A program made the translations under genes and the position numbers. A DNA stretch of 64,000 nucleotides from an uncultured Ignavibacteriales bacterium (GTDB lineage Bacteria > Zixibacteria > MSB-5A5 > GN15 > FEB-12): NCBI GenBank assembly GCA_964518635.1, contig CAZFGK010000005.1, positions 1,679-65,678 of the forward strand, written 5' to 3'. Numbering within the stretch: position 1 is the stretch's first letter; every line of letters starts with the position of its first letter. The notes beneath the pieces are model-generated. The model ran no database searches and was not told the origin of the DNA. It saw nothing but the letters and a program-made list of their open reading frames with translations. Positions 11,225-36,640 of the stretch are shown here, piece by piece.

Positions 11225-11227
11225 GGA

Positions 11228-11737
11228 TTATCCTTTCCCCAGGGTCAGCGTCTTTCGCTCACCACGAACATTCAGAATCACAGAGCTTTTGGTAATTTCA
11301 GCCACGATTGCGCCGTCGATTATCTGACCCACGTGCACCGGCTGATCGTTGACATAGGCGACCGGCTTTGAAGGAAGATAGATGATCCCCCCCAGTCGCC
11401 AGTTATTGATCACTTGCGGTGCACTACTCGACTGGGCACCCTCTCGCTCCCGTACGACTCGTCGGTTTGACCGAGGCGCAAACGGGTCGTTCCCCCATGT
11501 GTCTTTGAGGGTGAATGAATTCTTGCCAGACAGAGGAATGACGGTCGTCGAAGAAGATGCAGTAGTAGCAACAACCGGTTGAATACCACTGACTGGATCG
11601 ATAGTGACTGCAGCAACGGCCGGGACCGGTTCCGGTAGAACTGGTTTAACCTTTATGCCAAACTGCACATAGAGAGTAACGGCAACAATCACTCCCGCAA
11701 AGATGTAGACGACGTTCTGGCGGACGTTTGGTTTCAT
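11228..11737 (-). CDS. PilP/GspC-like pilus assembly protein (hypothetical)
   Basis: 169 aa. N-terminal TM segment, a T/S/V-rich linker, and a small C-terminal beta domain (WRLGGIIY...AYVNDQPVHVGQIIDG). The call rests mainly on position between the PilO-like gene and the secretin. Confidence 0.45.
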   Translation of the reverse strand: MKPNVRQNVVYIFAGVIVAVTLYVQFGIKVKPVLPEPVPAVAAVTIDPVSGIQPVVATTASSSTTVIPLSGKNSFTLKDTWGNDPFAPRSNRRVVREREGAQSSSAPQVINNWRLGGIIYLPSKPVAYVNDQPVHVGQIIDGAIVAEITKSSVILNVRGERKTLTLGKG

Positions 11738-12333
11738 GATTCAACTCCAGAAGAAGTTGAATCCGGTTTGGACATCAGCACACGGCACATCATGTCTATT
11801 CGGAGCTGATCGGGGGATTTTTCAACGTCTGCTGCAAGTGTTTGGCTCAGCAGTGCACGGAAATAGGCGCGCTCTTCGAGTTTTTTCAGAAAGCGACCGT
11901 ACTGTTGATATCGCCCTTCAGACACGATGCGAATTGAGAGATTGCTCGAATCAGGATCGGTTGAAAGGCGAGTCGAGAATTGTAGATATTCATCTAGAGG
12001 AGGATGTAACTCCAGGACCTTGAGTCCTTCGCCTGAGGCGATCTCGTGGATGTCTTCCAGCATTGCTGCGATTTCGGACGGAGAGTAGAGCTTCTGGGCG
12101 AGTACCACTCGCTCTTTCGTCGTGCTGTCCAGGGCAGCCATGTACGTTGGAATTGCCTGAAGGGTCTGTTGTAGCTGGTTCAGTTCGCCGCTGGTGTTCT
12201 GCACTTGTTGTAGAAGCTGAGCTTGCTCAGCTCTTCTTGGGAGATACAAGACAAGTAGCCAGGCAAGGATGAGGACACCGATCGCACCTGCATACAGCAT
12301 GACTCGCATTTTCGGAGCGTGGAAGGAGTTCAT
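11734..12333 (-). CDS. PilO-like pilus assembly protein
   Basis: 199 aa. N-terminal TM segment followed by a coiled coil (EQAQLLQQVQNTSGELNQLQQTLQ). Overlapping start and stop codons with both neighbours. Confidence 0.55.
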   Translation of the reverse strand: MNSFHAPKMRVMLYAGAIGVLILAWLLVLYLPRRAEQAQLLQQVQNTSGELNQLQQTLQAIPTYMAALDSTTKERVVLAQKLYSPSEIAAMLEDIHEIASGEGLKVLELHPPLDEYLQFSTRLSTDPDSSNLSIRIVSEGRYQQYGRFLKKLEERAYFRALLSQTLAADVEKSPDQLRIDMMCRVLMSKPDSTSSGVES

Positions 12334-13964: not shown

Positions 13965-13972
13965 GGTGTCCC

Positions 13973-14413
13973 CTAAAACGTCACAATGATACTGTCGCCA
14001 CCACCGGTCGAGATGATACGGCGATTCGGGCGTTGATAGACATAGCTCGATCCCCAGGCATCCGTGAGGTATTCCCCGCCGCTGGAGTCGATGTACGGGC
14101 CGTTCCAGCCGAGACGGCTGAGCTTGTTATAAGTGCTCAGGGAGTCGGGCTTCTTTGCCAGATCAAGCAGTTGATTCGGGATCAAGCCGACATCTCCTTC
14201 AAAGCCCCGTTCAATAAGTTGACCGCCGGCAACCACGTTTGGGTTGCCGACGATCGCACGTTTCAGAACATTCAACTCTTCTTTCGTCGCCGTCTCTTTG
14301 GATGCATCGGTCAGATCGGCGAATCGAGGAATCACCGCGACCGCTAGTATCCCAAGGACAACAATCACAATGACGAGTTCCGTGAGCGTAAAGCCGGAGG
14401 CGTTCAGGCGCAT
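13973..14413 (-). CDS. Prepilin-type N-terminal cleavage/methylation domain protein (pilin/pseudopilin 2)
   Basis: The MRLNASGFTLTELVIVIVVLGILAVAVIPRF N-terminus is a class III signal peptide (G/FTL.E). I chose ATG 14413 rather than the track start at 14518. Confidence 0.8.
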   Translation of the reverse strand: MRLNASGFTLTELVIVIVVLGILAVAVIPRFADLTDASKETATKEELNVLKRAIVGNPNVVAGGQLIERGFEGDVGLIPNQLLDLAKKPDSLSTYNKLSRLGWNGPYIDSSGGEYLTDAWGSSYVYQRPNRRIISTGGGDSIIVTF

Positions 14414-14442
14414 GGTAATCTCGTCCGATCTCTGCGCCCGGT

Positions 14443-14886
14443 TTACCAGGTGTTCTCTGAGACGCCGCCGGTGTTGGTATTGAGCCAGAGCTCTCCGGTC
14501 GTTGGCTTGTATGCCCATCCGCCACGAGTTCCTACGATGGTACCGCGAGTCACACCAGTGACCACAGAGTCGCCTGCGTTGGTCTGGTACGGATTTTTCG
14601 GGATAGCCGTCGAGAGAACGGTACCGAACGTTTCAAGCTGGCTGACTGTCGGCCAAGTGGCAGTTCCAGTGGTGACGGCAGTATTCGCGTAGTAGATCGC
14701 GACACCGGAACGGATGGCACCGAGTGAGGCGCGAGCAGCCGATTCTTTCGCCTGTCCACTCAGATCCTGATACTTCGGAATTGCAACTGCGGCAAGAATA
14801 CCAAGCACTACGATGATGATCACAAGCTCAATCAGGGTGAAACCACCCGACCGGCTCAAACGGGATGAACTGGTCAATGCACTCAT
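14443..14886 (-). CDS. Prepilin-type pilin/pseudopilin 1 (probable major subunit)
   Basis: SRSGGFTLIELVIIIVVLGILAAVAIPKYQDL class III signal. 147 aa. Confidence 0.85.
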   Translation of the reverse strand: MSALTSSSRLSRSGGFTLIELVIIIVVLGILAAVAIPKYQDLSGQAKESAARASLGAIRSGVAIYYANTAVTTGTATWPTVSQLETFGTVLSTAIPKNPYQTNAGDSVVTGVTRGTIVGTRGGWAYKPTTGELWLNTNTGGVSENTW

Positions 14887-14959
14887 CTGAAACCTCCGAA
14901 ATGTTTATTAGTCACGGTTTTGTTCACTTTCATTATCGACAAGAAGCTGACTTCATTTA

Positions 14960-16174
14960 CTATTTCCCGACGACCTTAATCAGATTCCACATCGGCATGA
15001 AGATCGCCAATGCCAGAGTCAGGACCATGACGCCGATGACGACGGTCAAAATTGGCTCAATCACGGCGGTCAGCTGGCGTGACCGATAGCGAACTTCTGT
15101 GGTGTAATATCTTCCGACTTCTTCTACTGTTGAGTCCAGATTTCCGGACTCCAGCCCGATAGCCATCATGTGGAGTGCCTGACGAGGGAAGTAGGCGAAT
15201 GGCTCGGTGGTCAAATCTCCTTCACGACCCCGTCTGACAAGCTCTTCGATCTGACGAATCTCATCGGATAGGACTTTGTTGGTAATTGTTCCTGCCAATT
15301 TGTTCAGACACTGGACCATCGGAAGTCCGGCGCGAAAGAGGATGCGAAAAAGAAGCATGAAACGGGCGACATTCGCCTTTACGACCAGTTCTCCGACGAC
15401 GGGCAGTTTAAGAATGAGCGCATCGAACTGGCGACGCCCTCTCTCGGTTCGGTGATAGGCACGTAATCCGAAGAAAGCTGCAATCGCACCGGCAATCATG
15501 TAGTACCAGTAGTTTGCAACCGCCTGCCCTGTCCACATCAGAATCTTGGTTGGGAGAGGCAGATCCGCCTCAAAAGCTGAAAAGAAAGTCACAAATCGTG
15601 GTACCACGAATCCAAGCAGGACTGCTCCGGCGAGTGATATTGCGATCATGACCATCATCGGATAACGAAGGGCACCCTTGACCTGACGATTCAGTTCCAT
15701 TTCCTCTTCGACCATCACGGCAAGTTCGTCGAGAGAAGCATCCAGCTTACCGGTCTCTTCACCAGCTGCAACGGTTGAAACGTAAACCGGGTCGAAAATT
15801 TCGGGATGATCGGCCATTGTATCGGAGAGTGATTTTCCACTCTGGAGTCCGACTCGCATGTCATCAATGGCCAGATTGAACGGTCCGTCGGGCTTTCCCA
15901 CCCGAATGATCAGAAGCCCGCGAAGGAGTGGAACGCCCGACCGATACATCGTCGCAAGAGAGCGAGTGAAGAGAATGGTCTGCTCAAGTGGTATCTTGGC
16001 GCCGAAAGAGAGAATCGATTTCGTGCCGGTCTTTGCCGATTCCTCAAGCCGAATCGGCTGAAGTTGTTGATCCTGAAGTTGTGAGCGTGCCTGATCAAGA
16101 GTATGAGCAACGATGATCCCCTCGCTGACATTTCCTCGCTGATCAAAGGCCCGGTAGTTGAACTTGCTTGACAT
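14960..16174 (-). CDS. Type II secretion system F family platform protein (PilC/GspF)
   Basis: 404 aa. Two T2SSF repeats and three TM regions. Typical FTRSLATMYRSGVPL and FRAGLPMVQCL motifs. Confidence 0.9.
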   Translation of the reverse strand: MSSKFNYRAFDQRGNVSEGIIVAHTLDQARSQLQDQQLQPIRLEESAKTGTKSILSFGAKIPLEQTILFTRSLATMYRSGVPLLRGLLIIRVGKPDGPFNLAIDDMRVGLQSGKSLSDTMADHPEIFDPVYVSTVAAGEETGKLDASLDELAVMVEEEMELNRQVKGALRYPMMVMIAISLAGAVLLGFVVPRFVTFFSAFEADLPLPTKILMWTGQAVANYWYYMIAGAIAAFFGLRAYHRTERGRRQFDALILKLPVVGELVVKANVARFMLLFRILFRAGLPMVQCLNKLAGTITNKVLSDEIRQIEELVRRGREGDLTTEPFAYFPRQALHMMAIGLESGNLDSTVEEVGRYYTTEVRYRSRQLTAVIEPILTVVIGVMVLTLALAIFMPMWNLIKVVGK

Positions 16175-16183
16175 AACGAGACG

Positions 16184-17911
16184 CTACTGACTCAGCGAAC
16201 TGCTGAGTTCCGGCTGAAGATAGTCCTCAGCATTTGATGTCTCTTTCAGGAGTTCTTCGAGGCAGAGGATACCGGATGTGAGTTTTTCAAGCCCCGACTC
16301 GAACAATGTCAGGAAACCGTTCTTTCTGGCAAGCTCACGCAGACGATTGGCAGAAGCTCCAGAGAGAATCGCTTCGCTGATAGGAGCTGTGATCTCAAGA
16401 TACTCATAGATGCCGGTCATTCCGGAGAATCCGCTCCCTTTACACTTGCGACATCCCGCCCCCCGTTTGAATTCGATTACATCACTGAGTTCAGTTATTC
16501 CAGCCCGCTGAAGAAGTGCAGCGGGTGGTTGATACGCTGCGGAACACTCAGAGCAATTCGTTCGAACAAGACGTTGAGCGAGGATCCCTTTCAATGCCGA
16601 AGCGAGGAGGTACGGCTCAATACCCATGTCCAGAAGACGTGCGACCGTCGACGGCGCGTCATTGGTGTGAATGGTCGAAAAGACCAGATGTCCGGTGAGG
16701 GAAGAGCGGACAGCGATCTTTGCAGTCTCGGTGTCGCGAACTTCACCGATCATGACGATATCCGGATTCTGTCGCAGCATCGATCTCAATGCCGCGGGAA
16801 AACTTAGTCCGGCTTTTTCATTGATCTGAACCTGATTGATCAGCGGCAAGGAATATTCAACCGGGTCTTCCACCGTGATGATATTTTTCTCAATCGAATT
16901 GATTTCCTGCAGCGTGGTGTAGAGTGTAGTCGTCTTGCCGCTGGAGGTCGGTCCGGTGATCAGGATCAGCCCTTCGGGCTGTTTCACGACATGCAGCCAC
17001 TCGGCGAGCATCTTTGGCCGAAAACCGAGCTGCTGAAAAGTCAGGTGGAGGTTGCGCCGATCCAGAATTCGAATAACAATCTTCTCTCCGTGAATTGTCG
17101 GCAGCGTCGAGATTCGAAGATCAATGGAGTGACCATCCACTGATACTGCCATTCGTCCATCCTGCGGAATTCTTTTTTCGGAGAGATCAAGATTTGCCGA
17201 GACCTTGATTCGTGAAAGTATTTCACTTTGCATGGACTTGGGCGGAGAGGCCTCTTCCCGCATTCCGCCATGAATACGATAGCGAACTCGAAGAGTGTCC
17301 TCATCCGGTTCGATATGAATATCGCTTGCTTTGTCCTTGACCGCCTTGGAGATAATCAAATTCACCAGCCGAACAATGGGGGCTTCCGATTCATTGCTCT
17401 CGGTGCTGACCACCTGGAGCGGGGCGATCTTGGTGGGACGAGCGGTTTCGCGGTTATTGGCAATAATTTCATTTAGAGAATCTGCAACGGAGTAATAACG
17501 ATCAATGGCTTCTCGAATTTCATCCGCACGTGCGATGGTTCGTTTAATGTCGGCATTGGTCTGATAGCGGATTTCGTCAATGGCGATAATATTCAGCGGG
17601 TCGGCCATCGCGAGAGTGATGGTGTTTCCGATTGCGAAAATCGGAATGATCGTATACCGGCGAGCAATCTCAACCGGAACGCGTTGGACTACATGCGGGT
17701 CAATGACCAATTGACCAATGGAGAGTTTGGGGATGCCTAGACGTTCGGAGACTGCTTCGAGTAGCTGATCTTCGTTGATGATCCCCTTTGCAACCAGAAT
17801 ATTGCCAAGCCGCTCTCCGGTCTTCTCCTGAATAGCAAGGGAATCGGTCAATTGCTGCTGAGTGATGACCCCTCTTTCGACGAGTAAATCACCGAGGCGC
17901 TTCCGAGTCAT
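16184..17911 (-). CDS. GspE/PilB family secretion ATPase
   Basis: N-terminal MshEN/GSPII_E-like domain. Walker A GPTSSGKTTTLY, Asp box, Walker B DIVMIGEVRD, and a tetracysteine motif (CSEC...CRKC). I prefer ATG 17911, which has an AGGAG 11 nt upstream, over GTG 17950. Confidence 0.92.
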   Translation of the reverse strand: MTRKRLGDLLVERGVITQQQLTDSLAIQEKTGERLGNILVAKGIINEDQLLEAVSERLGIPKLSIGQLVIDPHVVQRVPVEIARRYTIIPIFAIGNTITLAMADPLNIIAIDEIRYQTNADIKRTIARADEIREAIDRYYSVADSLNEIIANNRETARPTKIAPLQVVSTESNESEAPIVRLVNLIISKAVKDKASDIHIEPDEDTLRVRYRIHGGMREEASPPKSMQSEILSRIKVSANLDLSEKRIPQDGRMAVSVDGHSIDLRISTLPTIHGEKIVIRILDRRNLHLTFQQLGFRPKMLAEWLHVVKQPEGLILITGPTSSGKTTTLYTTLQEINSIEKNIITVEDPVEYSLPLINQVQINEKAGLSFPAALRSMLRQNPDIVMIGEVRDTETAKIAVRSSLTGHLVFSTIHTNDAPSTVARLLDMGIEPYLLASALKGILAQRLVRTNCSECSAAYQPPAALLQRAGITELSDVIEFKRGAGCRKCKGSGFSGMTGIYEYLEITAPISEAILSGASANRLRELARKNGFLTLFESGLEKLTSGILCLEELLKETSNAEDYLQPELSSSLSQ

Positions 17912-18366
17912 GGGCGAATGATCTCCTGTTGAAAAGGTCGTTATAAGCACCTCAGCGAGCTATGGTCGAGTCGGCGACAGGATTCGATCTCTCTCGATGC
18001 CAAGGGTGCTGTTCTCGTTATCGGCTCTGGTGTCTTTGGCTCAAGAGGCAGAAGCCGACTTCGGGAAGGGAAGTGACGCAATTGCCGGTTTTATGCCGAA
18101 CCTGCGCAGATTCTGCACAAGTGAGATCGAAAAAATGTGCCACCTGTCCCTCCCGGGATGACGATAGTAGTAGAGTTTTAGGTCTCATTCGGTACAAGTC
18201 CTTGGAAATTGATGCCATTTCCGCTATATTGATTCCGCTGCCGAGAAGTACTCATCGGTCGTCTCATAAGTCCTCAAAGAAGTTTTGGGACGGTCAATTC
18301 AGTCCTGCAAAAGGAGATGTGCACTACGTGAAGAATGTCCACGCCTGCAATCTGAGTTCTCGCGCA

Positions 18367-20355
18367 ATGATGCAGTTGCTGCTGGTATTTCTGATTCTCT
18401 CGCTGTTGAGTATGTCAACTCTTGCTGCGTCGCTTCGGTCAATCTCTGCCCTTCAGGAAGACCGAAACAACGGTCTGATCACTGCAGATCAGTTTGCACT
18501 TGAAATTATTCGAACTATCAAGACTCCAATTTCTCAACTCCCTGATCAGGCAATTGAGCAAGAGCAGAATCAACATCGCGTGTGTGCAACAGCGGCACTC
18601 CTTCAGATCAGACAGTCGTGGGACTCACTCAGTCGATCTACCCAGCAGCTTGTTACGGCGGCTCTAGCACGCCCTTCGGCCGATTCGGTGCTGGTTTCTC
18701 CCTCGGGATTTTTCACACTGCATTACAGCTTGAGCGGCGTAAACGCGGTTCCTGCAGCTGATCTGGATGCAGACATGCGCCCTGATTATGTCGAAAAGAT
18801 GGCCGCCTATATGGATACTTCACTCTTCACGCATCGTGATCTCGGATTTATCGATCCGCCGTTTGATGGTTTGAACGGGGGAGATTCAACCTTCGATGTC
18901 TACTTTGAAGACATCGGTGCCTATGGCTACGCTGTCCCGGAAGGGCCGGGGCCGAATCCGTGGCCGGATGAATTCTCCTATCTGGTCGTTCACAATACCT
19001 TCGTTGGATTTCCTCCGAATGATGACCCTGAAGGGGATGTTGCCGGGGCCGCAAAGGCGACTTGCGCCCATGAGTTTCATCATTGTGTGCAGTTTGCCTA
19101 TGATCCGAATGAAGCGATCTGGTTAATGGAACTGGATGCAACGGAAAGTGAAGACCTCGTCTACAATGCTACCGACGACAATTACAATTACCTGAACGGC
19201 TATTTCCTGGATCCTGAAATTTCATTGATGTCGGTCAGCAATCACATGTACTCGTCCTTCATCTGGCATAGTTATCTCGCTCAGCGTTTTGATACGACAT
19301 TACTTACTCAACTCTGGAAGGGTGCACGGACCGTGAGTTCCTTTCAGAGTTCAGCCGACTCACTGCTCGCGTATCATGGAGTTACTCATGACAGTGCATT
19401 TACTGAGTTTGTGAGTTGGTTGTACAAGACGAATACCCGATCGGACGGCACCGGATTCGAAGAGGCCTCGTCCTATCCGTTTGTGCAAATTGATCGCAGC
19501 CATTCCAGCTTTCCGATAGCAGCTCAGCTTTCGCCAAAATCTCCGGGAGGGTATGCCTCCTGCTGGGTTGAGGCGATCACATCCGGTGTCTCTGGAAACA
19601 TGAGGATTGATTTCGACGGAAATGATGCCCGTCAATGGGGAGCAGTCGTCATCCTGACAAAAGGAATCAATCAGCATACCGTCCTTTCTATTCCCCTCAG
19701 TGGACCAAACTACGTCGGAAGTATTACTGTCGATTCGATGGGGCAGTATTCCAAGATTACTCTGGCCGGAATAAACCTGAGTGAAAACTCCGCCTCTTCG
19801 ACTTTCACCTATGGTTTTACGCCGACGTACACGTTAAGTGTTGCTGCGTCTCCTGCAGACTCAGGTGCCTATTCTGGTGCATCACGCTCAATGAAGCTGT
19901 ATCTGAAGAATTTTCTACCGACAGGTCAGGTGATGCGCGCAGTCTTCAGCGATCTGTCCGGTTGGGTCGACCTTGATTCGGCGAACGTGTTTGTTCCGAC
20001 ACTCGACAGCGCAATCGTACTCATCCCTGTCAGCGTTCCGGTTTCAACCCCGCTTGGAACTCTCTCACAGGTCGATGTCGCGGTGCGATCCCTCTCTGAT
20101 ACGACTCAGCACTTCACCATGAATTTCAACGCGATCACGGTGGTGAAGCGTGGTGATTACAATTTTGACGGATCCATTGACATTGCTGATCTTACCTACT
20201 GTGTGAACTATCTCTTTTTCTTTGGTGATGATCCGATTCCAGTTGTTCTTGCAGGAGACTTCGACTGTTCTCCCGGAATTGACATCGGTGATTTGACACA
20301 GCTCGTTGACAATCTCTTTCTCTCTTTCGCACCCAGCCCGTGTCAGCCCGACTGA
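18367..20355 (+). CDS. Secreted HExxH zinc metalloprotease with a C-terminal dockerin-like duplicated Ca-binding module
   Basis: Signal peptide MMQLLLVFLILSLLSMSTLAAS. The zinc motif is AHEFHHCVQF. The C-terminus has GDYNFDGSIDIADLTYCVNYLF and GDFDCSPGIDIGDLTQLVDNLF, two dockerin-type repeats. An alternative GTG start at 18328 follows an AGGAG. Confidence 0.7.
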   Translation: MMQLLLVFLILSLLSMSTLAASLRSISALQEDRNNGLITADQFALEIIRTIKTPISQLPDQAIEQEQNQHRVCATAALLQIRQSWDSLSRSTQQLVTAALARPSADSVLVSPSGFFTLHYSLSGVNAVPAADLDADMRPDYVEKMAAYMDTSLFTHRDLGFIDPPFDGLNGGDSTFDVYFEDIGAYGYAVPEGPGPNPWPDEFSYLVVHNTFVGFPPNDDPEGDVAGAAKATCAHEFHHCVQFAYDPNEAIWLMELDATESEDLVYNATDDNYNYLNGYFLDPEISLMSVSNHMYSSFIWHSYLAQRFDTTLLTQLWKGARTVSSFQSSADSLLAYHGVTHDSAFTEFVSWLYKTNTRSDGTGFEEASSYPFVQIDRSHSSFPIAAQLSPKSPGGYASCWVEAITSGVSGNMRIDFDGNDARQWGAVVILTKGINQHTVLSIPLSGPNYVGSITVDSMGQYSKITLAGINLSENSASSTFTYGFTPTYTLSVAASPADSGAYSGASRSMKLYLKNFLPTGQVMRAVFSDLSGWVDLDSANVFVPTLDSAIVLIPVSVPVSTPLGTLSQVDVAVRSLSDTTQHFTMNFNAITVVKRGDYNFDGSIDIADLTYCVNYLFFFGDDPIPVVLAGDFDCSPGIDIGDLTQLVDNLFLSFAPSPCQPD

Positions 20356-20734: not shown

Positions 20735-22504
20735 TTATTTGATCAGGAGCATTTTCACCGCTTGTTGGGAACTGTCGACTTCCAATGAGGCGAGGTACAT
20801 CCCTGACCCGACTGATTCTCCTTGCTGGTCTTTTCCATCCCACTCAACCTGATATTCTCCGGCCGCACGAGATTCATTCACCAGCGACCGGATTTCCTGT
20901 CCCACGAGATTGTAGATGGTCAGTCTTACCGCTGCAGTCGCTTCGAGAGAGAATGCAATGGTCGTCGAAGGATTGAACGGATTCGGATAGTTTCCGTGCA
21001 GCGCAAAAGAAGCTGGTACAACTGCATCATCATCGACGCCAGCAACGATCCCGACGATCAAATCGGCGGTTATCACCGGGCTTGAGTTTGAGATGTCATT
21101 GACGGCGACGAACGTTCCGCCTGTCGTGTAGGAATTACTGTTTGGAGTGGTTGAACCATTCCAATTGCGGACAGTCAATGATCCGGGAAACGGATCAGAG
21201 GCATTTCCTGAACTCGATGGTGAGCCGTTTTCAAGTTCAAAGAGGCCGTCTGCTTGTTCCAATGCAACGAGATAGTGATTCGCGCCTGGATTTCCCGGAA
21301 TCCACTCTTGCTGGTTCGTCGACTTGTTGTCGTCGATGTGCCAGATGAACAGTCCCCCTTGAGGGATGTAAGCGTCGTAGCCGATTTTCTGACGGTTCTC
21401 TACGAGGAAATACTCATTTGTCATGAGTCCCGATGTCCAGAGTCGGAAAATCTGCCCGCCAGTGTTGACCTGCGCGATCGGCTGATTAATCAGATTTGAG
21501 GTGACATTCTGTGCCGTCTTGAAACCCATCTCGATACGGCTCCATGCACTCGGATGAGACGGGGAAGCGCCAAGTCCACCCGGACCATTCCAGCTTCCAA
21601 CCGCCATGATATCCCATTTCCCGACTCCGTGTGAAGAGCCATCGGTGTCATACAGATCAGGAAGACCAAAGCCATGACAGAGTTCATGGGCATAGACACC
21701 AATAGTCATGTCATTTGGATTGTACCAGTATTCCGGTTGCACCGTAAATGATGAAATCGAGACACCATCTTTCACTCGTGGCGAGATCCCCCACTTGTGT
21801 GACCACATATCGTTGGCGCTGCCGGTCAATTCCGCTCCGGACCCTGCATGAATGACAAGAAGTACATCGACCGTGCCATTGTTATCATTGTCGTAGTTCG
21901 AAAAATCGACCAACGGATCGACCAGGTCGACGAGATCTTCGACCATCTTCTGTGAATTGTGTGGATAATCGCCGAGACCGTTATCCGGGTTGTTCGAACC
22001 ATTCATATCCTGTACATAGTAGTTGTAAGTCTGTGGCGCGGTCTGCCAGCCGATGGTCGATGGTGCATTCACCGTTACCAGATCAAGTGAGCCGTAGGAT
22101 ATTTCATCAAAGTAGTCTTTGATCGTTGCCCCGTTGGCGGAGAAGATCATTGAATCGAAATAGGTCGGCTGTACCTGCGAGTTCTTGTCGGAGAATTTCA
22201 CCAGGATGGCAAGAATTTTAAACTGCGTAGCAGCAGATTGCGCTCCACCTTGAGTTCGACGGGAGACGATGTTGGAGAGAGTCTGCGCCATGAAAGAATC
22301 CGGCGTGCAGATCCCTTTGTCATGGCGATGCGCGAAGTCAGGGATGATTCGTTCGGCTCTGGGTGCGCTATTCGCGTTCGCTTCCAGAAGCGAAGGATGC
22401 GGGGCGACCGCATGCCCGGACGTTGACATCGAACCAACAAATAGCAACGACAGAGCCGCTGCCCTGGAAAGTGAATTTTTCATTTGAACAACCATGGAAC
22501 GCAT
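20735..22504 (-). CDS. M6 family (immune inhibitor A-like) metalloprotease with a T9SS C-terminal sorting domain
   Basis: Signal peptide. The HExxH context is VYAHELCHGFGLPDLYD. The C-terminal 85 aa (NYPNPFNPSTTIAFSL...LTIYNLVGQEI...VGSGMYLASL...KMLLIK) is a Por_Secre_tail/FlgD-Ig-like CTD. AGGAG lies 6 nt before the ATG. Confidence 0.85.
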   Translation of the reverse strand: MRSMVVQMKNSLSRAAALSLLFVGSMSTSGHAVAPHPSLLEANANSAPRAERIIPDFAHRHDKGICTPDSFMAQTLSNIVSRRTQGGAQSAATQFKILAILVKFSDKNSQVQPTYFDSMIFSANGATIKDYFDEISYGSLDLVTVNAPSTIGWQTAPQTYNYYVQDMNGSNNPDNGLGDYPHNSQKMVEDLVDLVDPLVDFSNYDNDNNGTVDVLLVIHAGSGAELTGSANDMWSHKWGISPRVKDGVSISSFTVQPEYWYNPNDMTIGVYAHELCHGFGLPDLYDTDGSSHGVGKWDIMAVGSWNGPGGLGASPSHPSAWSRIEMGFKTAQNVTSNLINQPIAQVNTGGQIFRLWTSGLMTNEYFLVENRQKIGYDAYIPQGGLFIWHIDDNKSTNQQEWIPGNPGANHYLVALEQADGLFELENGSPSSSGNASDPFPGSLTVRNWNGSTTPNSNSYTTGGTFVAVNDISNSSPVITADLIVGIVAGVDDDAVVPASFALHGNYPNPFNPSTTIAFSLEATAAVRLTIYNLVGQEIRSLVNESRAAGEYQVEWDGKDQQGESVGSGMYLASLEVDSSQQAVKMLLIK

Positions 22505-22515
22505 ATCTCTCTCCT

Positions 22516-23814
22516 TTAGAATGCAAACCCAGTGGAAAGGGCGACATGTGCCCCGGTTGAACTCTTCGATGAAAAAGACGATCCCCCGACCACTGCGGCA
22601 TCGACATAGAGCCCGAACAGTTTGATACCTGCTCCGCCGCTGAAGCGGGTGTTGTCATCGCCGCCGGTTTGTACGCCGGCTCGCAAGGGAAGAAACCCAA
22701 TCAACCGAAGCTCGATTCCGGCTGCGATTTCAGGATTCTTTGAGACCGAGAAACGATTTTCGAATCCCTGTGTCCAGTCGACGGCATAGCGGAGCCAGCC
22801 ACGATTCTGCGCAAGACCAACGGTCAACTGCTTTGGGAGGGAAGTCGTAAACGAAGGAATATCTCGTTCGATCTCTTCTGAGAGGATATAGTCCTCATCA
22901 AGATTTTCTACGGTGGCAGTATCGAAGCTGAATTGATAACCGAATTCTTTGGTGTCACGGTTCCAATTCATCGAAGAGAACACATTGCTCACTTTCGCGC
23001 CAATAACCATCCCGTGAGAGAGATTCATGGCGACTCCGAGATCAGCGGCATAGCCACGTCCGCCCATGGCAGTGCGTGTCAGCAGATTTCCGGCTCCGGC
23101 GAAGCCGGTAGAGGTGGTAATCGCCATTCCGTTCAGTTCGGTGACTTCCTGATACCCTAGTCCATACAGATAGCGACCTGTTACTCCAGCGACCAACTGG
23201 CGTGAGCCAATCGATGCAAGGGGAAGTCCGACCGAGAGGGAGGCTGATGCAATGCTTAGCCCATCTGCGCGAGTGCCATCAAGATTGATCGAGTCATTGA
23301 TCTGATTACCATTGAGAATTAGATCGACTATGTCTTTGCTGAGGTTCACATCTGCAGTCGCTGTAGCACTGAAGTCGAAGGCGATCTTCCCCCAACCGAT
23401 GGTCATTGCAGAAGCGGCGACATTGGCGTCAAAACGGAGCCCGTCGGCGGGAACTCTGCCGAGGAGATAGGCCTTATCCTGATCGGTCAGAAAGGCGCCG
23501 GTGTATTTGTTGTAGTCGTCGAGGTTGAATGAATTGTTGTTCAGACGCGCTCCGACACCGATGAATTCAATTCCGGCATTTCGATACCCCTGCAATGCCA
23601 GATTCGCTGGATTAAATCGACCGGCAACGGGTCCATTGGCGAGGGAGAGATGTGCACCACCCATTGCTAAACTACGCGCAGAGGAAGTCGTCGCCTGTGA
23701 TCCACTGACGCAGAATGTCAGCAGTAGCGCAGCGATAAGTGTGAAATGTGAGACTCTAGTGATAAGGTCCGCGGCGGGTACTGAACGAGTATAGGAAACC
23801 TGCTTGTTCATCAT
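22516..23814 (-). CDS. Outer-membrane beta-barrel protein, PorV/PorQ/TraF-like (DUF5723-like)
   Basis: Signal peptide. The mature N-terminus SARSLAMGGAHLSLANGPVAGRFNPANLAL resembles the ARS-GMG...NPA-LA signature of this barrel family, recalled from memory. Alternating beta pattern and a C-terminal ...STGFAF. AAGGAGG SD lies before the ATGATG. Confidence 0.6.
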   Translation of the reverse strand: MMNKQVSYTRSVPAADLITRVSHFTLIAALLLTFCVSGSQATTSSARSLAMGGAHLSLANGPVAGRFNPANLALQGYRNAGIEFIGVGARLNNNSFNLDDYNKYTGAFLTDQDKAYLLGRVPADGLRFDANVAASAMTIGWGKIAFDFSATATADVNLSKDIVDLILNGNQINDSINLDGTRADGLSIASASLSVGLPLASIGSRQLVAGVTGRYLYGLGYQEVTELNGMAITTSTGFAGAGNLLTRTAMGGRGYAADLGVAMNLSHGMVIGAKVSNVFSSMNWNRDTKEFGYQFSFDTATVENLDEDYILSEEIERDIPSFTTSLPKQLTVGLAQNRGWLRYAVDWTQGFENRFSVSKNPEIAAGIELRLIGFLPLRAGVQTGGDDNTRFSGGAGIKLFGLYVDAAVVGGSSFSSKSSTGAHVALSTGFAF

Positions 23815-23821
23815 CCCCTCC

Positions 23822-25849
23822 TTAAAAGCTGCCATCGAAGCGGTAGGTGATTTCGGCGCGAGCGATGAGTGTGACATAGTCGCTCCCTGTGAATCGAACG
23901 ACCTGACCGGATGTACCGGGAAGAGTCAGTACCGGAAGAATGTAGAGCGGATTATTTTTCAGCACATCGATCTCTGAACGATCCAGCGTTATTCGCAGTT
24001 CACCAGTTGTCGAAGCCGCAGTCACAATGCCGCCGGTCAGAGTTCCTGGAGCCAGGGTGATGCCGTCAATATTGACATCCGGATTGTTCAGCAAACTTGC
24101 CGAATCTGCTCCCAGATGAATCTCAAGCGTCGCACCGACCGGGAGATGATTGTTCACGGTGTAGACAATCTCTGCCTGTTGAATATCCGCGCTGGCATCA
24201 GCCAAGCCGTCACTCTCGGCACGTTCAACATCAAAATCGATGAGTGTTGGTCCGAGAGTGAGTGCGAGAGGTGCGCTGAAACGGGCAACTCCGACCACAA
24301 AATCACCACTCGAAATCGTTCCGATGGTTGATCCGTCTCCGAAGTTTGCAGTGCCGGTGATGGTGATATTGGTAGGGAGTGGGGAAAGGAAATTTGCGAC
24401 GCTGGAGTCGACAGAGGTCGATGTCACCGCTGTCTGGCCGTTCGCTGCGGCGATAGTGCCGGAGAAGGTCAGTTGCTTACCGTTATTGGCATTCAACTGA
24501 AGACTATAGTCTCCGGCGACACCGAAACGATTGGTGATACTCAGAAGAAGGACTGCTTCGGCAAGGGAACCATTTTCGAATCCCTGCGGGATATCGACAT
24601 CGATAGAAGTCGGATCAATGACGGTCGTGATATCCAGTGTGCCAGTTACTGTGGCGAAAGAAAGATTGGAGAGCTCTACATCGCAGGAGAATCCGTCATT
24701 CGCGTTGACGTTTATCAAATTGCTGCCACTGCCGGCGGAGGTAACCTGGAGATCTATGGGTAATTGCTGCGGAGCAGTCTGATCAGCGATTTCAAGAACG
24801 GCATTCGCAAGATTGATCGTCTGATTGTTGGTAGATTGGGGCGCAACATTCTGAGTCACGACCAGTGCATTTCCACCCTGTTTAAGATCAGGGATGGTAA
24901 TCTGGATAGTCGCCGCCAAATTAGTTCCGTTGGTAATCGAAACTGAAAGATTACCTCCACTTAATTCCGCCTGCTGAATGACTTGTGGTTCATTCAGGCT
25001 TGCAGTGCTAGTGACGGAACGCGAGAGTGATGGTACCGTCGTCGTCGCGGATGAAACCGTCAACGAATTATCGAAGCGAAACTCGGTGGTGATCCCTTTG
25101 TCTGCGGCACTGAGGACAGAACCGCCGGATGTATGACAATCAGCAAGCATTCCCAACTGATTTGAGAGAGTACGTCCATTCAAATTTACAGCGACAGAGT
25201 CCCTCGCTGCTGATGCAATTCCAGATGGGAAATTGAACGTGCCGATGAGTTGCGACGCGCCGTTATCATTCAAATCAACTGTCACAGTTGAAAGATCAAT
25301 ACCGAGATTATTTTCGATAATCAGCCACGCACTCCCCTGACCGATGGTCATGCTGGTGTAAGAAGTACTGGACGGGATATCAGCGGCGACGACGAAATCC
25401 ATCGCTGGGACATTTCCGGGAAGAACAACTGCCAACGGCCCGATATCAGCGACCGGAACAACAACCGGGCTCAGTGCAGGGGGGACGACAGTGACATTCC
25501 CCAACGTCTGGTTCACCGATTGACTGATATTCGATGTCTGAAACTCGGCGGCATCAACGCGGACGGTATCAAGAGTTTCCGAGATTTCAAAGAGTACCGC
25601 GCCATTACTGTCGACACGGAGATAGTCGCCGTCAATTTTCTCGACGAGTTCAGTCATGGTGTAGGTTCGCTGAATGAGTGGGACGGTCAAATTGGTATCC
25701 CAGGAGGGTGACTCCGGCGATTTGATACTGCACTGAATCAGAGAAAGGAAGACAGTGATGAGCATCACTGCAAAGAAGCACTTCATGAGAAAATTCACGA
25801 ACCAGGAGCCGCGCTCCTGATCGGCGAGATTTCCGGTTCGTCGTGACAT
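23822..25849 (-). CDS. Large secreted, probably lipidated, hypothetical protein rich in T/S/N/V beta-type sequence
   Basis: About 675 aa. ATG 25849 is preceded by AGGAGG at 7 nt. Hydrophobic signal ending ...LSLIQCS. No recognisable domain. First gene of a 3-gene minus-strand operon. Confidence 0.6.
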   Translation of the reverse strand: MSRRTGNLADQERGSWFVNFLMKCFFAVMLITVFLSLIQCSIKSPESPSWDTNLTVPLIQRTYTMTELVEKIDGDYLRVDSNGAVLFEISETLDTVRVDAAEFQTSNISQSVNQTLGNVTVVPPALSPVVVPVADIGPLAVVLPGNVPAMDFVVAADIPSSTSYTSMTIGQGSAWLIIENNLGIDLSTVTVDLNDNGASQLIGTFNFPSGIASAARDSVAVNLNGRTLSNQLGMLADCHTSGGSVLSAADKGITTEFRFDNSLTVSSATTTVPSLSRSVTSTASLNEPQVIQQAELSGGNLSVSITNGTNLAATIQITIPDLKQGGNALVVTQNVAPQSTNNQTINLANAVLEIADQTAPQQLPIDLQVTSAGSGSNLINVNANDGFSCDVELSNLSFATVTGTLDITTVIDPTSIDVDIPQGFENGSLAEAVLLLSITNRFGVAGDYSLQLNANNGKQLTFSGTIAAANGQTAVTSTSVDSSVANFLSPLPTNITITGTANFGDGSTIGTISSGDFVVGVARFSAPLALTLGPTLIDFDVERAESDGLADASADIQQAEIVYTVNNHLPVGATLEIHLGADSASLLNNPDVNIDGITLAPGTLTGGIVTAASTTGELRITLDRSEIDVLKNNPLYILPVLTLPGTSGQVVRFTGSDYVTLIARAEITYRFDGSF

Positions 25850-25902
25850 ACACAATCCTCCTGCAACCATTTCCCTGACCCTCCGGCATTCGCCAGGGAG
25901 GT

Positions 25903-26116: not shown

Positions 26117-27151
26117 ATGACCAAAGCAAGTCGACTCATTCGTTTGATTCTTCTCTTGCGAGCGAACCGCTCAATGGATTGTGGTCGTCTGGCTCGTGAG
26201 CTTGCTGTTAGTGAGCGAACTGTCTATCGTGACATCGACGCGCTCTCAGATATCAATGTACCGATCTACTACGACGGTTCCGGATATCATCTGCAGGACA
26301 ATTCATTTCTCCCGATTCTCAATCTCGATACCGAGGAGTATTTCCTCCTAAAGACTCTGCTCGAAGCCCCTCCCTCAAAAGCGACCACTGAGACACGGGC
26401 TTTGGTCAAACAGCTGTCACACAAACTAGACGCAGTACTCAGTGCGACGGTCAAAGAGGCACGCAAGACTCGTCAAAGTTCCAGTCGGATCATGGTTAAA
26501 AGCAGCTATGATCCGATTACCGTCGAAAGGTGGATGCCTGTTCTCTGTCAGGCGATCAAGACAGACAAGATGGTTGAGATAGAGTATGACAGTCTTGGAC
26601 GAGGGAAAGGGTTGCGGGAACTTGAACCGTATCAGATTCTCTTTCGCGGGAGAGCATTCTACCTGATCGGCTACTCGACAGAGCATCAGGAATATCGAAT
26701 CTATCGGCTGGATCGAATCTCAAATGTCACCATTGCCAAGCAGCATTTCTTACCCCGGACTGACTACAATCCTGAAACGCTGCTGACTGGAAAAACAGAC
26801 TATGACGGGGACTCAAACTGGTACGATATCGAAGTCATATTCCGTGGACGTGCGGCGAAAATAGTCTCGACCGGAAAACGATTCGATGGAGAACAGCTCT
26901 CCAAACTCGCCGATGGAGGTGTTCGCTATAAGGTAAGGGTTCAGGGGCTATCAGAAATCGCGGTCTGGATCGCAGGGTATGGGGTCGAGGCGGAAGTTGT
27001 CGCTCCCGAACTGCTCCGCAGACGATTCGCCGAAATCGGAAGGTACTACTTGGAAGCCTACGGCAAATCGGCTCGCCCAGAGGAAGTCATCACGCTGGAA
27101 TCTGATCGCACCTCACGGCTGACTCATTTGAAGGATTCAGGCAGCAATTAG
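26117..27151 (+). CDS. WYL domain transcriptional regulator (YafY/PafC-like: HTH + WYL + C-terminal extension)
   Basis: The N-terminus SRLIRLILLLRANRSMDCGRLARELAVSERTVYRDIDAL is an HTH_11-type domain. The central VEIEYDSLGRGKGLRELEPYQILFRGRAFYLIGYSTEHQEYRIYRLDRI is a WYL domain. Confidence 0.85.
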   Translation: MTKASRLIRLILLLRANRSMDCGRLARELAVSERTVYRDIDALSDINVPIYYDGSGYHLQDNSFLPILNLDTEEYFLLKTLLEAPPSKATTETRALVKQLSHKLDAVLSATVKEARKTRQSSSRIMVKSSYDPITVERWMPVLCQAIKTDKMVEIEYDSLGRGKGLRELEPYQILFRGRAFYLIGYSTEHQEYRIYRLDRISNVTIAKQHFLPRTDYNPETLLTGKTDYDGDSNWYDIEVIFRGRAAKIVSTGKRFDGEQLSKLADGGVRYKVRVQGLSEIAVWIAGYGVEAEVVAPELLRRRFAEIGRYYLEAYGKSARPEEVITLESDRTSRLTHLKDSGSN

Positions 27152-27218
27152 GTCTGACCGAGGGGGGCTTTGTCATCGACTGAATCGGGGCTATCTCCTT
27201 TTCCGACAGGAGTTTTAT

Positions 27219-27247
27219 TTGACTCAATCCGGAAGCCCGTCTAGAGT
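27219..27247 (+). promoter_or_regulatory. Candidate sigma70-type promoter for the BMC-H/AldDh genes
   Basis: TTGACT-17 nt-TAGAGT, about 105 nt upstream of the BMC-H start. The leader contains an imperfect hairpin at roughly 27262-27292. Confidence 0.35.
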
Positions 27248-27354: not shown

Positions 27355-27639
27355 GTGGAAGCATTAGGTCTGATAGAGACAAAGGGACTCGTTGCCCTGA
27401 TCGAGGCGAGTGACGCCATGGTCAAAGCGGCCAAAGTAACCTTGGTTGGCTACGAGAAGATCGGCGGCGGTCTGGTGACTGCAATCGTGCGTGGTGATGT
27501 TGCGGCATGTAAGGCAGCAACCGACGCAGGAGCGGCAGCGGCTCAGAAGATCGGCGAATTGGTTTCGGTGCACGTTATCCCACGTCCGCACAGCAATGTC
27601 TTTGAGATTTTCCCGGCACGTCTCCCCGGCGAGAAATAG
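27355..27639 (+). CDS. Bacterial microcompartment shell protein, BMC-H (PduA/EutM type hexamer)
   Basis: 94 aa. [62 protein letters not shown]...VHVIPRPH is collinear with PduA, recalled from memory. GTG start lies 5 nt after AGGAG. Confidence 0.92.
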
Positions 27640-27697
27640 GCCAGCAATGAATCGGCGAGGAGAGTTCCTCTTTTCGCAAACGGAACGGAGCTTGTAG

Positions 27698-29248
27698 ATG
27701 TCTGCAAACTTCATTCCCTCTTCTTCGAATGCCAGCGGCCAGGTCGAAGAGATTGTCCGCCGTGTGCTCTCTGAAATCCAGGTTGGCTCACAGCCAATTG
27801 CGTCCCCGACAGGTCAATCATCACTTCAATCAGTAGTCCAGGCAAAGAGCTGGCAGCATTCCGCATCGCCATCATCAGTTGGCTCATCAGTTCCCCCCAG
27901 AGCAACACCAGTCGGGTCGACAAATATCTTTTCTGATCTGAATCAGGCGGTCGAAGCAGCCCGTCTGGCGCAGAGAAAGTGGCTCGATGTCTCGCTCGAA
28001 CGTCGCAAAGCGATTGTCGAAGCGATTCGCGTGACTGCTCGTGCCAATGCCGAACGTCTCGGTCGTATGGCAGTCTCCGAGACTGGTCTCGGTCGGATGC
28101 CAGACAAGATGAACAAGATTCTACTTTGTGCTGACAAGACTCCGGGGCCGGAAGATCTGCATCCTATCGCTTTCAGTGGTGATCATGGACTCACCCTTGT
28201 CGAACCCGCCCCATGGGGAGTGATTGGCATTATTACACCCAGTACGAATCCAGCAGAGACCGTTCTCAATAATACAATCTCAGCAATCTCCGCCGGAAAT
28301 AGTGCGGTCTTCAATCCGCATCCGGGGGCGAAGATGGTCTCTGCCGAAATGGCGAAACTGATTCATGATGCTATTCTCTCGTGTAATGGTCCTGAATTTT
28401 TGATAACCTGTGTTGAAAGTCCGACGGTCGAGTCCGCTCAGATGCTCATGAAACATCCCGGTATCGATCTGATACTTGTCACAGGAGGTGGGGCAGTAGT
28501 TCGGCAGGCGATGCAATCCGGTCGCCGCGCTATTTGTGCCGGTCCCGGGAATCCGCCAGTCCTTGTGGATGAGACCGCGGTTCTCACCCAGGCAGGGAAG
28601 GATATTGTCGATGGGGCATCCTTCGATAACAATGTCCTTTGCACCGACGAAAAAGAGATTTTCTGTGTCGACAAAGTTGCCCATCGTCTCAAACGAGAGA
28701 TGATCGCTCACGGCGCGTATGAATTGGAAGGGGCGAATATCGACAAACTGACCCGGATTCTCATCGAAAGTGATCCGGATGGTCGAGGATATCGTCATGT
28801 GGCAATCAATAGACGATTTGTCGGTAAGAACGCCGAAGAGATTCTCAAGCAGATTGATGTCGTGCCGCCCCCCGGAACACGATTAGTTTTCTTTGAAGCG
28901 AATTGGGATCACCCGCTGGTAATGGCGGAGCAGCTGATGCCAGTCATACCCTTTGTACGAGTCAAGAATGTCGAGGAGGGGATGGAAAAATCGGTGATTG
29001 TCGAGCATCAGTTTCGTCACACCTTCGTCATGCACTCTACCTCGATTGTGAACCTGAGCACGATGGCACAGCTATGTCGGTCGAACATTTTTGTGAAGAA
29101 CGGCTTCAACATGGCCGGACTTGGCTATGGCGGGGAAGGGTATGCCTCGATGTCGATTGCCGGAACGACCGGTGAAGGAATAACCAAAGCGAGCACCTTC
29201 ACACGCCCGCGACGATGCACGCTGGTCGATTATTTCAGAATCATTTAG
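27698..29248 (+). CDS. CoA-acylating aldehyde dehydrogenase (EutE/PduP type) with an N-terminal encapsulation-peptide-like helix
   Basis: 516 aa. The catalytic Cys context FDNNVLCTDEKE matches the BMC AldDh pattern DNN.PC.AEKE. Residues 14-29 (GQVEEIVRRVLSEIQV) form an amphipathic helix like the PduP/EutE targeting peptides, followed by an S/P/Q-rich linker. Confidence 0.88.
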   Translation: MSANFIPSSSNASGQVEEIVRRVLSEIQVGSQPIASPTGQSSLQSVVQAKSWQHSASPSSVGSSVPPRATPVGSTNIFSDLNQAVEAARLAQRKWLDVSLERRKAIVEAIRVTARANAERLGRMAVSETGLGRMPDKMNKILLCADKTPGPEDLHPIAFSGDHGLTLVEPAPWGVIGIITPSTNPAETVLNNTISAISAGNSAVFNPHPGAKMVSAEMAKLIHDAILSCNGPEFLITCVESPTVESAQMLMKHPGIDLILVTGGGAVVRQAMQSGRRAICAGPGNPPVLVDETAVLTQAGKDIVDGASFDNNVLCTDEKEIFCVDKVAHRLKREMIAHGAYELEGANIDKLTRILIESDPDGRGYRHVAINRRFVGKNAEEILKQIDVVPPPGTRLVFFEANWDHPLVMAEQLMPVIPFVRVKNVEEGMEKSVIVEHQFRHTFVMHSTSIVNLSTMAQLCRSNIFVKNGFNMAGLGYGGEGYASMSIAGTTGEGITKASTFTRPRRCTLVDYFRII

Positions 29249-29340
29249 TGCCGTTTCGCAGTTGACCTTTTCTCTCTCTCAGATCATCCTTATCAACGAT
29301 TATATTCGATTCGATCGCCTTACATACAAGGAGATGTAAC

Positions 29341-29913
29341 ATGCCTCATCACGTCCTCTGCATTCTTGCCGAGGGGTTTGAAGATATCGAGACCATTGCC
29401 CCGATAGACATACTCAATCGTGCGGGGGTGGAAGTCACCGTCGTCGGGCTGCTTCCCGGTCCGGTCAAAGCCGCCTACGGTACGACCATTCTGCCAAAAA
29501 CTGACCTGACGAAACTTGATGTAACGCAACTTTACGACGGAATTTTCTTCCCTGGTGGGAGAGTTAATGCTCGTGCCCTTGCCGCTTCATCGACTGTCAT
29601 TGATCTCATTCATCGCCATGACCGTGCCGGAAAACTGGTGTCCGCAATCTGCGCGTCACCGAGTCACGTGTTGGGCGAAGCAGCAGGAATTTTGAAAGGG
29701 AGAAGAGCTACCGGCGATCCGACTTTCAATGAAAAACTTGACGAGTCGGGAGCAATTCTGACAGACGAACTGGTCACCCGGGATGGAAATCTGATCACCG
29801 GAATGGGGCCGGGAGCAGCGATGCCGTACGGGCTTGCTCTTGCAGCCTATTTTGTTGGTCGGGAGATCACCGACGGCTACGCCGAAAAATGGCGCATCCC
29901 AAAGAACTACTAA
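29341..29913 (+). CDS. DJ-1/PfpI (ThiJ/YajL-like) family protein
   Basis: 190 aa. ILAEGFEDIETIAPIDIL N-terminus and a nucleophile elbow SAICASPSHVL. AAGGAG SD upstream. Confidence 0.88.
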   Translation: MPHHVLCILAEGFEDIETIAPIDILNRAGVEVTVVGLLPGPVKAAYGTTILPKTDLTKLDVTQLYDGIFFPGGRVNARALAASSTVIDLIHRHDRAGKLVSAICASPSHVLGEAAGILKGRRATGDPTFNEKLDESGAILTDELVTRDGNLITGMGPGAAMPYGLALAAYFVGREITDGYAEKWRIPKNY

Positions 29914-36039: not shown

Positions 36040-36103
36040 CAATATCTCAGTTCATTAAGCCGGGCAAGCCGGGTACATGGATTGAGTATGTAGATGGCTG
36101 CAG

Positions 36104-36261
<158 letters not shown>

Positions 36262-36640
36262 GTGGCGCCTTTTGATCTCCTGTTTCCCTTACAATGCCAA
36301 GTGGAATTTTCAAGCTTCTGCTCGCATATATGTAGCTACTTGCTTTTGACTCATCGAATGGCGTGAACGGCCCACCAATCACGTAGTCAAACTCAGGTTG
36401 TTTAGTTGGGTTAATTCGGAGTGGAGAGAACGATGCAAAATTTCAGGCAATAAAAAGAGGGCGCTCGTCTGGTCGGGTAGAGGGGGCTAGGAAACTACCC
36501 AGGGACAGCAGAGAGTCACCCTCGTCAATTGTGAACGCAATATCTACCAATCATCCGATCAGTCAAGCCCTTTTGGACTGAAATTCCGAAAAACATTTCA
36601 TGGCCAGAGAGCAGGTTTTCGCAGGCATTTCAGTGCTATT

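Follow-up and report, generated by a model that had tools for sequence, protein, structure and literature searches.

What does a bacterial microcompartment (BMC) locus do that encodes one shell hexamer and one tagged enzyme, with no further shell or core genes around them? We address this question for a gene pair in a 64,000-nt stretch (hereafter, the window) of contig CAZFGK010000005.1 from the uncultured Zixibacteria genome GCA_964518635.1. Here a gene for a BMC-H shell protein (27355–27639) is followed by one for an aldehyde dehydrogenase (AldDh, 27698–29248) with an N-terminal encapsulation peptide (EP), both on the forward strand, as are the features of the window given below without a strand, the pilus/secretion block excepted. 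A preliminary description of the window had posed an either/or: a satellite whose BMC is encoded elsewhere, or a scaffold made of BMC-H only. These were the right alternatives to name, but the arguments it drew from a neighbouring DJ-1 gene, a WYL regulator and a supposed locus class failed. We favour, with modest confidence, the view that the pair is a fragment of a dispersed (‘FRAG-like’ or ‘satellite-like’), SPU-like, acetaldehyde-handling BMC, the rest of which would be encoded elsewhere.

A shell hexamer and its putative cargo

The shell protein gene starts with GTG, 5 nt downstream of an AAGGAG motif, and encodes 94 aa forming a single PF00936 domain (E = 1.1e-29, 102.7 bits at a cutoff of 24.5). 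The protein also passes the NCBIfam EutM equivalog cutoff (161.9 versus 133 bits), which bears out its initial reading as a PduA/EutM-like BMC-H. Its identity to E. coli EutM is 78% and to Salmonella PduA 68%. The edge lysine (in DAMVKAAK), the IPRPH motif and the IGGG pore loop are all kept. The edge motif and the pore align with those of PduA and EutM, with most columns at least 90% conserved across the Zixibacteria clade described below, where overall BMC-H identity is at least 78% (median 86%). The protein is under strong constraint across the clade; it has the features of a canonical, EutM-like single-domain shell hexamer and is predicted to assemble into hexamers and facets. A 116-aa antisense ORF (27364–27714, reverse strand) that recurs in many relatives was rejected as a gene, being a by-product of BMC-H sequence conservation. 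The best-scoring BMC-H match, a 162-aa protein (P0423) from a 655-bp ENA contig, reached 232 bits versus 188 for the self-match; it could represent two BMC-H in tandem or fused, or else an artefact of assembly.

The second gene encodes a 516-aa protein of the BMC-associated EutE/PduP family, and its position 58 nt downstream of BMC-H, its profile score and its catalytic cysteine all agree with what had been proposed for it. It scores 590 bits against NCBIfam NF011927/PRK15398 (cutoff 403) and also matches PF00171; its top homologs of solved structure are acylating AldDhs that match it closely, 5JFL/5JFM and 4C3S (E about 1e-115; 4e-116 for 5JFL). The catalytic Cys315 aligns with that of a solved homolog (NNVLCTDEKE versus NNLPCVAEKE) and, together with residues of the NAD and CoA sites, is invariant among 44 homologs. 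The enzyme is of the CoA-acylating catabolic type and not a detoxifying oxidase.

The N-terminal amphipathic helix noticed earlier is supported by hydrophobic moment, conservation and structure prediction. This EP covers AldDh residues 10–29 (27725–27784), and its core, residues 16–27 (VEEIVRRVLSEI), has a hydrophobic moment of 0.77, the maximum in the first 80 residues, a value matched by 1.3% of shuffles. Hydrophobic positions 16, 19, 20, 23, 24 and 27 are conserved among 112 homologs, with 19, 20, 23 and 24 at 84–93%. AlphaFold2, given an alignment of 44 sequences, predicts a helix at residues 10–29, disorder at 31–72 (pLDDT <40) and, starting near residue 77, a catalytic domain modelled with confidence. 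The disordered, S/P/T-rich linker between EP and catalytic domain (about residues 30–75; 27785–27922) shows a column entropy of about 3 bits or above, and indels are frequent in it. Conservation of the EP face while the linker drifts is the textbook EP pattern and the signature of a working shell–cargo interaction; we infer contact of the EP with the shell, and docking is predicted. By its sequence the window AldDh belongs to type II, as it combines a EutE/PduP domain bearing the catalytic Cys with an N-terminal helix and a variable linker.

The 58-nt intergenic spacer (27640–27697) holds a GGAG (27688–27691) 6 nt before the AldDh ATG and is without a terminator. On the other side of BMC-H, a terminator-like hairpin with a T-run (27195–27212) closes the WYL regulator gene and makes a T-rich stretch before a predicted sigma-70-type promoter (27219–27247; TTGACT, 17 nt, TAGAGT). 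Counted alone, the promoter match in the window is not above chance. Comparison of the 110 nt before BMC-H in about 30 related loci revealed that most clade loci share a strongly conserved T-run, TTGACA, a spacer of about 17 nt and TAnnAT in this region (the window copy is at 27213–27247), with the T-run immediately 5′ of TTGACA. This arrangement is present even inside the 57–78-nt spacer that separates BMC-H from a QueT transporter gene in some relatives; a simple regular expression did not find the promoter in two loci of synteny group C (L064 and L066; see below). Since they have their own conserved promoter, BMC-H and AldDh form a separate transcription unit, and we read them as one operon. 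The leader in the window is unusually long, with about 108 nt between the –10 element and the start codon GTG, versus roughly 45–50 nt in most relatives.

Conservation of the pair and its relatives outside Zixibacteria

The claim that the window holds no other shell or core genes was upheld by each kind of scan applied. A six-frame hmmsearch, using hidden Markov models (HMMs) of BMC-P and of the BMC domain built from 55 and about 80 sequences of related loci, detected one BMC domain and no BMC-P in the 64 kb, even at E ≤ 10. Pfam scans of 37 large window ORFs gave no PduL, iron-type alcohol dehydrogenase (Fe-ADH), DeoC, RpiB or PduS, and phmmer searches of the window and of the clade loci with SPU deoxyribose-phosphate aldolase (DERA), RpiB and permuted BMC-T gave no match. 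The sole loosely related enzyme is a plain Pta (PF01515; 55811–56863, reverse strand), 26 kb from the pair and without an EP-like N-terminus. Taking the window and the clade loci together, no other shell gene lies within 10–37 kb of the pair.

Context look-ups of AldDh relatives, many of which are labelled Zixibacteria, and an AldDh scan of GTDB species representatives yielded 44 loci of the Zixibacteria clade, at least 34 of them distinct and 28 from GTDB species representatives. Exactly one BMC-H gene lies directly upstream of AldDh at every locus except L061, which starts at AldDh. In a neighbour-joining tree of catalytic domains all clade AldDhs are monophyletic; members of the clade are as little as 55% identical to one another, and at most 56% identical to sequences outside it. 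A single AldDh clade points to one ancestral rearrangement followed by long retention.

The surroundings of the pair fall into three synteny groups. In group A, which includes the window, genes for an M6 peptidase, a DUF5723 protein and a 682-aa protein on the opposite strand are followed by WYL, in some loci QueT, then BMC-H and AldDh on the same strand, and finally by variable genes. Group B has PurD on the opposite strand, then BMC-H, AldDh and PALP. Group C likewise begins with an opposite-strand PurD and continues with Vut_1, BMC-H, a Cys-rich ORF, AldDh, NTP_transf and GalT. This conserved, Cys-rich, zinc-ribbon-like ORF of 100–101 aa between BMC-H and AldDh, which has no match in Pfam, was seen at L058:9585–9890, L064:10467–10769 and L066:10468–10770. 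The 101-aa copy of L058 was considered as a degenerate BMC-P and ruled out: it is Cys-rich, gives E > 5 with the BMC-P HMM and has no Pfam match.

Beyond the clade, all 23 of the more distant AldDh loci recovered have BMC-P beside AldDh, in most cases as a triplet. Among their sources are Chloroflexota, Fidelibacterota, Neomarinimicrobiota, Gemmatimonadota, Myxococcales and Aminicenantes. The nearest outside AldDhs retrieved (43–56% identity) sit in compact, complete SPU loci with the order GntR, RpiB, DERA, permuted BMC-T, BMC-H, BMC-P, AldDh, BMC-T^s, BMC-P, BMC-P, TpiA, in which both RpiB (PF02502) and DERA (PF01791) have EP-like N-termini. The role proposed for the SPU type is catabolism of the deoxyribose-phosphate that arises when DNA is degraded (PMC8217296; PMC11585597). 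The Zixibacteria pair shares with SPU BMCs the style of its EP, and its nearest outside AldDhs retrieved belong to SPU loci. It differs in having no DERA, RpiB, BMC-P or BMC-T in or near the locus, which places it outside the SPU type as defined, and in its BMC-H, which is nearer to enterobacterial EutM (78%) than to the BMC-H of SPU loci (at most 71%). Complete SPU loci are likewise without PduL and alcohol dehydrogenase, so the absence of these two at the pair is not diagnostic. In one Neomarinimicrobiota single-cell genome (L045:1517–3015) a BMC-H/BMC-P pair is duplicated in tandem at the start of the SPU locus, the copies being nearly identical.

A further relative was found in candidate division CSSED10-310 (GCA_042576305.1, L063:764–3491), where a EutM-like BMC-H, 82% identical to that of the window, lies directly upstream of an EP-tagged DERA. 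This DERA matches SPU DERAs with E = 1e-82 and, when read from its true start, gains an EP-like helix as well as a linker rich in Cys (MKFPDQDREELVKLISQITVEVLNEL...CDLCGFC). The locus continues with a pyrimidine-nucleoside phosphorylase and then ComEC/ComEA, and no BMC-P was found in the 10 kb examined. This looks like a fragment of a dispersed SPU-like gene set, with ties to DNA uptake and to the catabolism of nucleosides. Thus, dispersal of SPU-like parts around a EutM-like hexamer does occur, and the presence of an EP-tagged DERA beside a related hexamer suggests acetaldehyde derived from deoxyribose-5-phosphate as the likeliest substrate of the Zixibacteria AldDh.

Dispersed microcompartment or self-sufficient scaffold

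How the pair relates to described BMC classes can be judged from its gene content. The preliminary description had mentioned a class of BMC-H-only loci; the catalogue contains none, and HO in it stands for the Haliangium ochraceum type, with one BMC-H, three BMC-P, BMC-T^dp, BMC-T^s and AldDh (Sutter 2021, PMC8217296). The pair, having no BMC-P or BMC-T, is not of this type. Neither is it a ‘main locus’, for which BMC-H plus BMC-P are required (Sutter 2021, PMC8217296), as no PF03319-like ORF occurs in the 64 kb or at the 44 clade loci. A satellite-like locus is one with shell genes of one Pfam family only (PF00936 or PF03319) and adjacent BMC enzyme genes (Axen 2014, PMC4207490), and this is what we found: the only shell gene belongs to PF00936, and the gene that follows 58 nt later encodes an EP-tagged AldDh. 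The same survey covers candidate-phylum loci with a lone AldDh or PduL (PMC4207490). Such loci resemble the pair in consisting of PF00936 shell genes and a BMC AldDh only, predicted to be structurally incomplete alone; they differ in that satellite-like is an operational category and not a biological family, whereas the combination of a single BMC-H and a single enzyme is conserved across the phylum Zixibacteria. The ETU locus of Clostridium kluyveri shares this resemblance to the Zixibacteria pair but has two shell genes and alcohol dehydrogenases.

In the types FRAG1–8, shell genes are spread over up to six places, with BMC-P always elsewhere and, in a few cases, proximal AldDhs; the hosts are Ignavibacteriae-related and candidate phyla (PMC8217296). 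FRAG7 and HO type I have BMC-H and an AldDh with an N-terminal EP at one site and BMC-P at another (PMC8217296). Both are like the pair in co-encoding a hexamer and an EP-tagged AldDh away from BMC-P, without a signature enzyme, in FCB-related or candidate phyla. The FRAG types are, however, defined by a BMC-P triplet elsewhere in the genome, whereas the Zixibacteria pair is known from its own locus; moreover, FRAG7 has PduS/T, PTAC and a flavoprotein beside BMC-H, whereas the Zixibacteria fragment consists of two genes with their own promoter.

If the pair is part of a dispersed BMC, its operon would supply the main facet hexamer and an EP-tagged core enzyme, the other BMC genes lying elsewhere in the genome. 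BMC-H would tile into shell facets, and the amphipathic helix of AldDh, on its flexible linker, would dock to the shell and co-aggregate with other EP-tagged cargo. The aldehyde would be made inside, most likely as acetaldehyde from an EP-tagged DERA encoded elsewhere, and AldDh would turn it into acyl-CoA and NADH before it escapes. We infer that the shell would be closed by BMC-P vertex pentamers, probably along with a PduT-like trimer, from distal loci.

This arrangement has its precedents in the FRAG class and the CSSED10-310 fragment, and Zixibacteria themselves have a representative in the catalogue trees. RBG_16_53_22, of this phylum, contributes a BMC-P (A0A1F4YQX5, PduN-like, ‘murkyGreen’) (Sutter 2021, PMC8217296) as well as a PduT-like BMC-T^s (A0A1F4YIG4), sister to the SPU3 T^s; both carry the flag ‘fragmented (sat) (omitted)’ and come from separate sites (PMC8217296). 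The satellite-like loci reported in 2014 from Poribacteria and BRC1 offer another parallel, these phyla having later been typed FRAG2 and FRAG6, with BMC-P triplets (PMC4207490; PMC8217296). The constraint on BMC-H, the conservation of the EP, the retention of the two genes as a unit and the placement of the nearest outside AldDhs in SPU loci argue in the same direction.

Several observations weigh against a dispersed BMC. No single genome was seen with both the pair and a BMC-P; what is on record for RBG_16_53_22 is BMC-P and BMC-T^s, and the accessions of the named Zixibacteria AldDh homologs do not trace to this genome. Its BMC-P is an atypical, PduN-like protein on a long branch (0.70) and no member of the triplet, and could derive from a different Zixibacteria lineage or from a binning error. 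Across the 44 clade loci, examined up to 10 kb per side (724 kb in total), there was no BMC-P (best E = 1.0), BMC-T or second BMC domain. A search with the window BMC-H for a second paralog found none among the 120 closest matches, all of them primary copies at least 80% identical; most FRAG types, unlike the pair, have two BMC-H. A scan with an EP profile for further EP-tagged ORFs near the pair returned AldDhs only, at a sensitivity low enough to miss the EP of outgroup DERA. A search with an SPU BMC-T^s of the FCB group as query has no weight either way: its 120 best matches were all at least 78% identical, with no Zixibacteria name among them. In an exhaustive BMC-T^s search of 50%-identity cluster representatives, look-ups of the clusters of ten PduT-like representatives (181–185 aa) gave none labelled Zixibacteria.

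The same lack of BMC-P and of a second BMC-domain gene, across the clade loci as well as in the window, is what one would expect if Zixibacteria had lost BMC-P and BMC-T altogether and used sheets, tubes or filaments of hexamers as an open scaffold to which AldDh is tethered through its EP. EutM and PduA homologs do self-assemble into extended arrays without pentamers, and a single ancestral event, after which only these two genes were stably kept for a long time, fits a self-sufficient module, as does the failure to find a second BMC-H paralog. An open scaffold would also need no PduL or alcohol dehydrogenase for cofactor recycling, and none lies near the pair; but complete SPU loci lack both enzymes too. 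The survey, about 10 kb on each side, amounts to <1% of a roughly 3-Mb genome, and one Zixibacteria genome is on record with BMC-P and BMC-T^s. Furthermore, earlier ‘incomplete’ loci of candidate phyla match phyla later typed as FRAG with BMC-P triplets, and our literature searches found no natural hexamer-only system. Engineered EutM/PduA scaffolds with EP-tagged cargo are among the systems treated in two reviews (PMC5534457, PMC7961827). They resemble the hexamer-only arrangement in combining one hexamer with one EP-tagged enzyme, but they are synthetic, with no documented natural counterpart, and hexamer-only status in Zixibacteria is a prediction. Weighing these points, we regard a pentamer-less system as a serious but rather unlikely explanation, and a native hexamer-only scaffold used throughout the phylum and kept since the divergence of the sampled lineages as a tentative proposal.

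Two further explanations start from the flanking genes. The preliminary description had noted a WYL gene upstream and a DJ-1 gene downstream, and both flank the pair in the window: a putative HTH_11-WYL-WCX transcription regulator, a candidate for local control, is encoded at 26117–27151 (WYL 8.6e-18, HTH_11 2.4e-11, WCX 3.6e-11), and DJ-1 (TIGR01383, 134 versus 131 bits) begins 92 nt after AldDh on the same strand. Both were taken as pointers to handling of a reactive aldehyde, which would make the pair part of a WYL-regulated detoxification module acting with the downstream DJ-1/glyoxalase III. Synteny in related genomes preserves only part of this arrangement: the BMC-H/AldDh pair is kept, while WYL is restricted to group A and the adjacency of DJ-1 to the window. 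WYL precedes BMC-H, with or without an intervening QueT, at almost every distinct locus of group A, and it is missing from groups B and C. DJ-1 lies 3.8–5.5 kb off in two other genomes, those of L004/L023 and of L018, and elsewhere none occurs within 10 kb; it moves with a DJ-1/NTP_transf/GalT/GlgA block whose rearrangements are independent of the pair. As the adjacency is not conserved, the argument from DJ-1 to a reactive aldehyde is unsupported. That from WYL fares no better, since the protein is a generic one (its distant PDB matches are DriD-like and PafC, E about 1e-7), conserved in group A only, with nothing aldehyde-specific about it. The CoA-acylating, catabolic type of the AldDh also speaks against detoxification. 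The module is largely refuted by synteny and very improbable, and comparison among the loci favours acetaldehyde from deoxyribose-phosphate, the SPU chemistry, over generic reactive-aldehyde detoxification. The remaining explanation concerns the substrate and not the shell: the pair might act on a compound imported by QueT in group A or by Vut_1/YhhQ in group C. Two non-homologous transporter families occupy a position 57–80 nt 5′ of BMC-H, QueT in 13 loci and Vut_1 in three distinct genomes. This looks like non-orthologous replacement, which at one position often marks a functional link. Yet BMC-H has its own conserved promoter within the QueT–BMC-H spacer, such a transporter is missing from the window and group B and from many loci of group A, and 7-deazaguanine salvage has no known chemistry leading to a CoA-acylating AldDh. 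In addition, an Rfam scan upstream of the pair and of QueT/Vut_1 gave no relevant riboswitch or other RNA element. We consider a link with the transporters improbable.

Should the pair indeed be a fragment of a dispersed BMC, Zixibacteria would join the lineages with fragmented SPU-like microcompartments. Their shell genes were left out of the typed 2021 catalogue; the phylum has not previously been described with such a BMC, and our literature search found no paper on BMCs in Zixibacteria. A minimal shell-plus-cargo operon with a conserved promoter could also serve in studies of EP–hexamer recognition. Were the hexamer-only explanation to hold, the pair would give the first enzyme scaffold from nature built of hexamers only, the native counterpart of the synthetic EutM/PduA scaffolds; it would change how ‘incomplete’ BMC loci are read in surveys and offer bioengineers a native design.

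Flanking genes and the remainder of the window

The WYL gene was also considered as a defence component and rejected, as PADLOC gave generic WYL models only and there are no defence neighbours. In the L004/L023 genome (JANQPI010000035.1; L004/L023:11849–15502), an insertion comprising a Y1 (IS200-like) transposase, three tandem DUF5684 genes and a DinB-family gene separates AldDh from DJ-1 and accounts for the 5.5 kb between them. The QueT gene (PF06177) was recorded at L055:8768–9577 and in 12 other group A loci, and Vut_1/YhhQ (PF02592) at L058:8354–9034, L064:9246–9938 and L066:9246–9926, in every case on the same strand as BMC-H and upstream of it. Both families are annotated as importers of queuosine precursors or vitamins, and neither is present in the window.

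Upstream of WYL, a block at 17962–20355 and, on the reverse strand, 20735–25870 is kept throughout group A. It encodes an M6 peptidase with a Por_Secre_tail (type IX secretion), a DUF5723 protein, and proteins of 682 and 797 aa without a Pfam match; the products are probably secreted or located in the outer membrane. A pilus/secretion block at 9956–17950 was identified from translations, outside the Pfam scans. The ORFs around the pair are otherwise those of an ordinary chromosome, with genes for riboflavin synthesis, glycosyltransferases, M6 peptidase, glycogen synthase, citrate synthase and PEP carboxykinase, among others. Genes for tRNA-Gly(GCC) and tRNA-Cys(GCA) lie at 36113–36270, and a 111-aa ORF on the opposite strand (36047–36382) is these tRNA genes read as protein. 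A CpeT/CpcT-family protein (PF06206, phycobilin lyase-like; E = 2.9e-49) is encoded at 58909–59634, in a non-photosynthetic, Zixibacteria-type genome.

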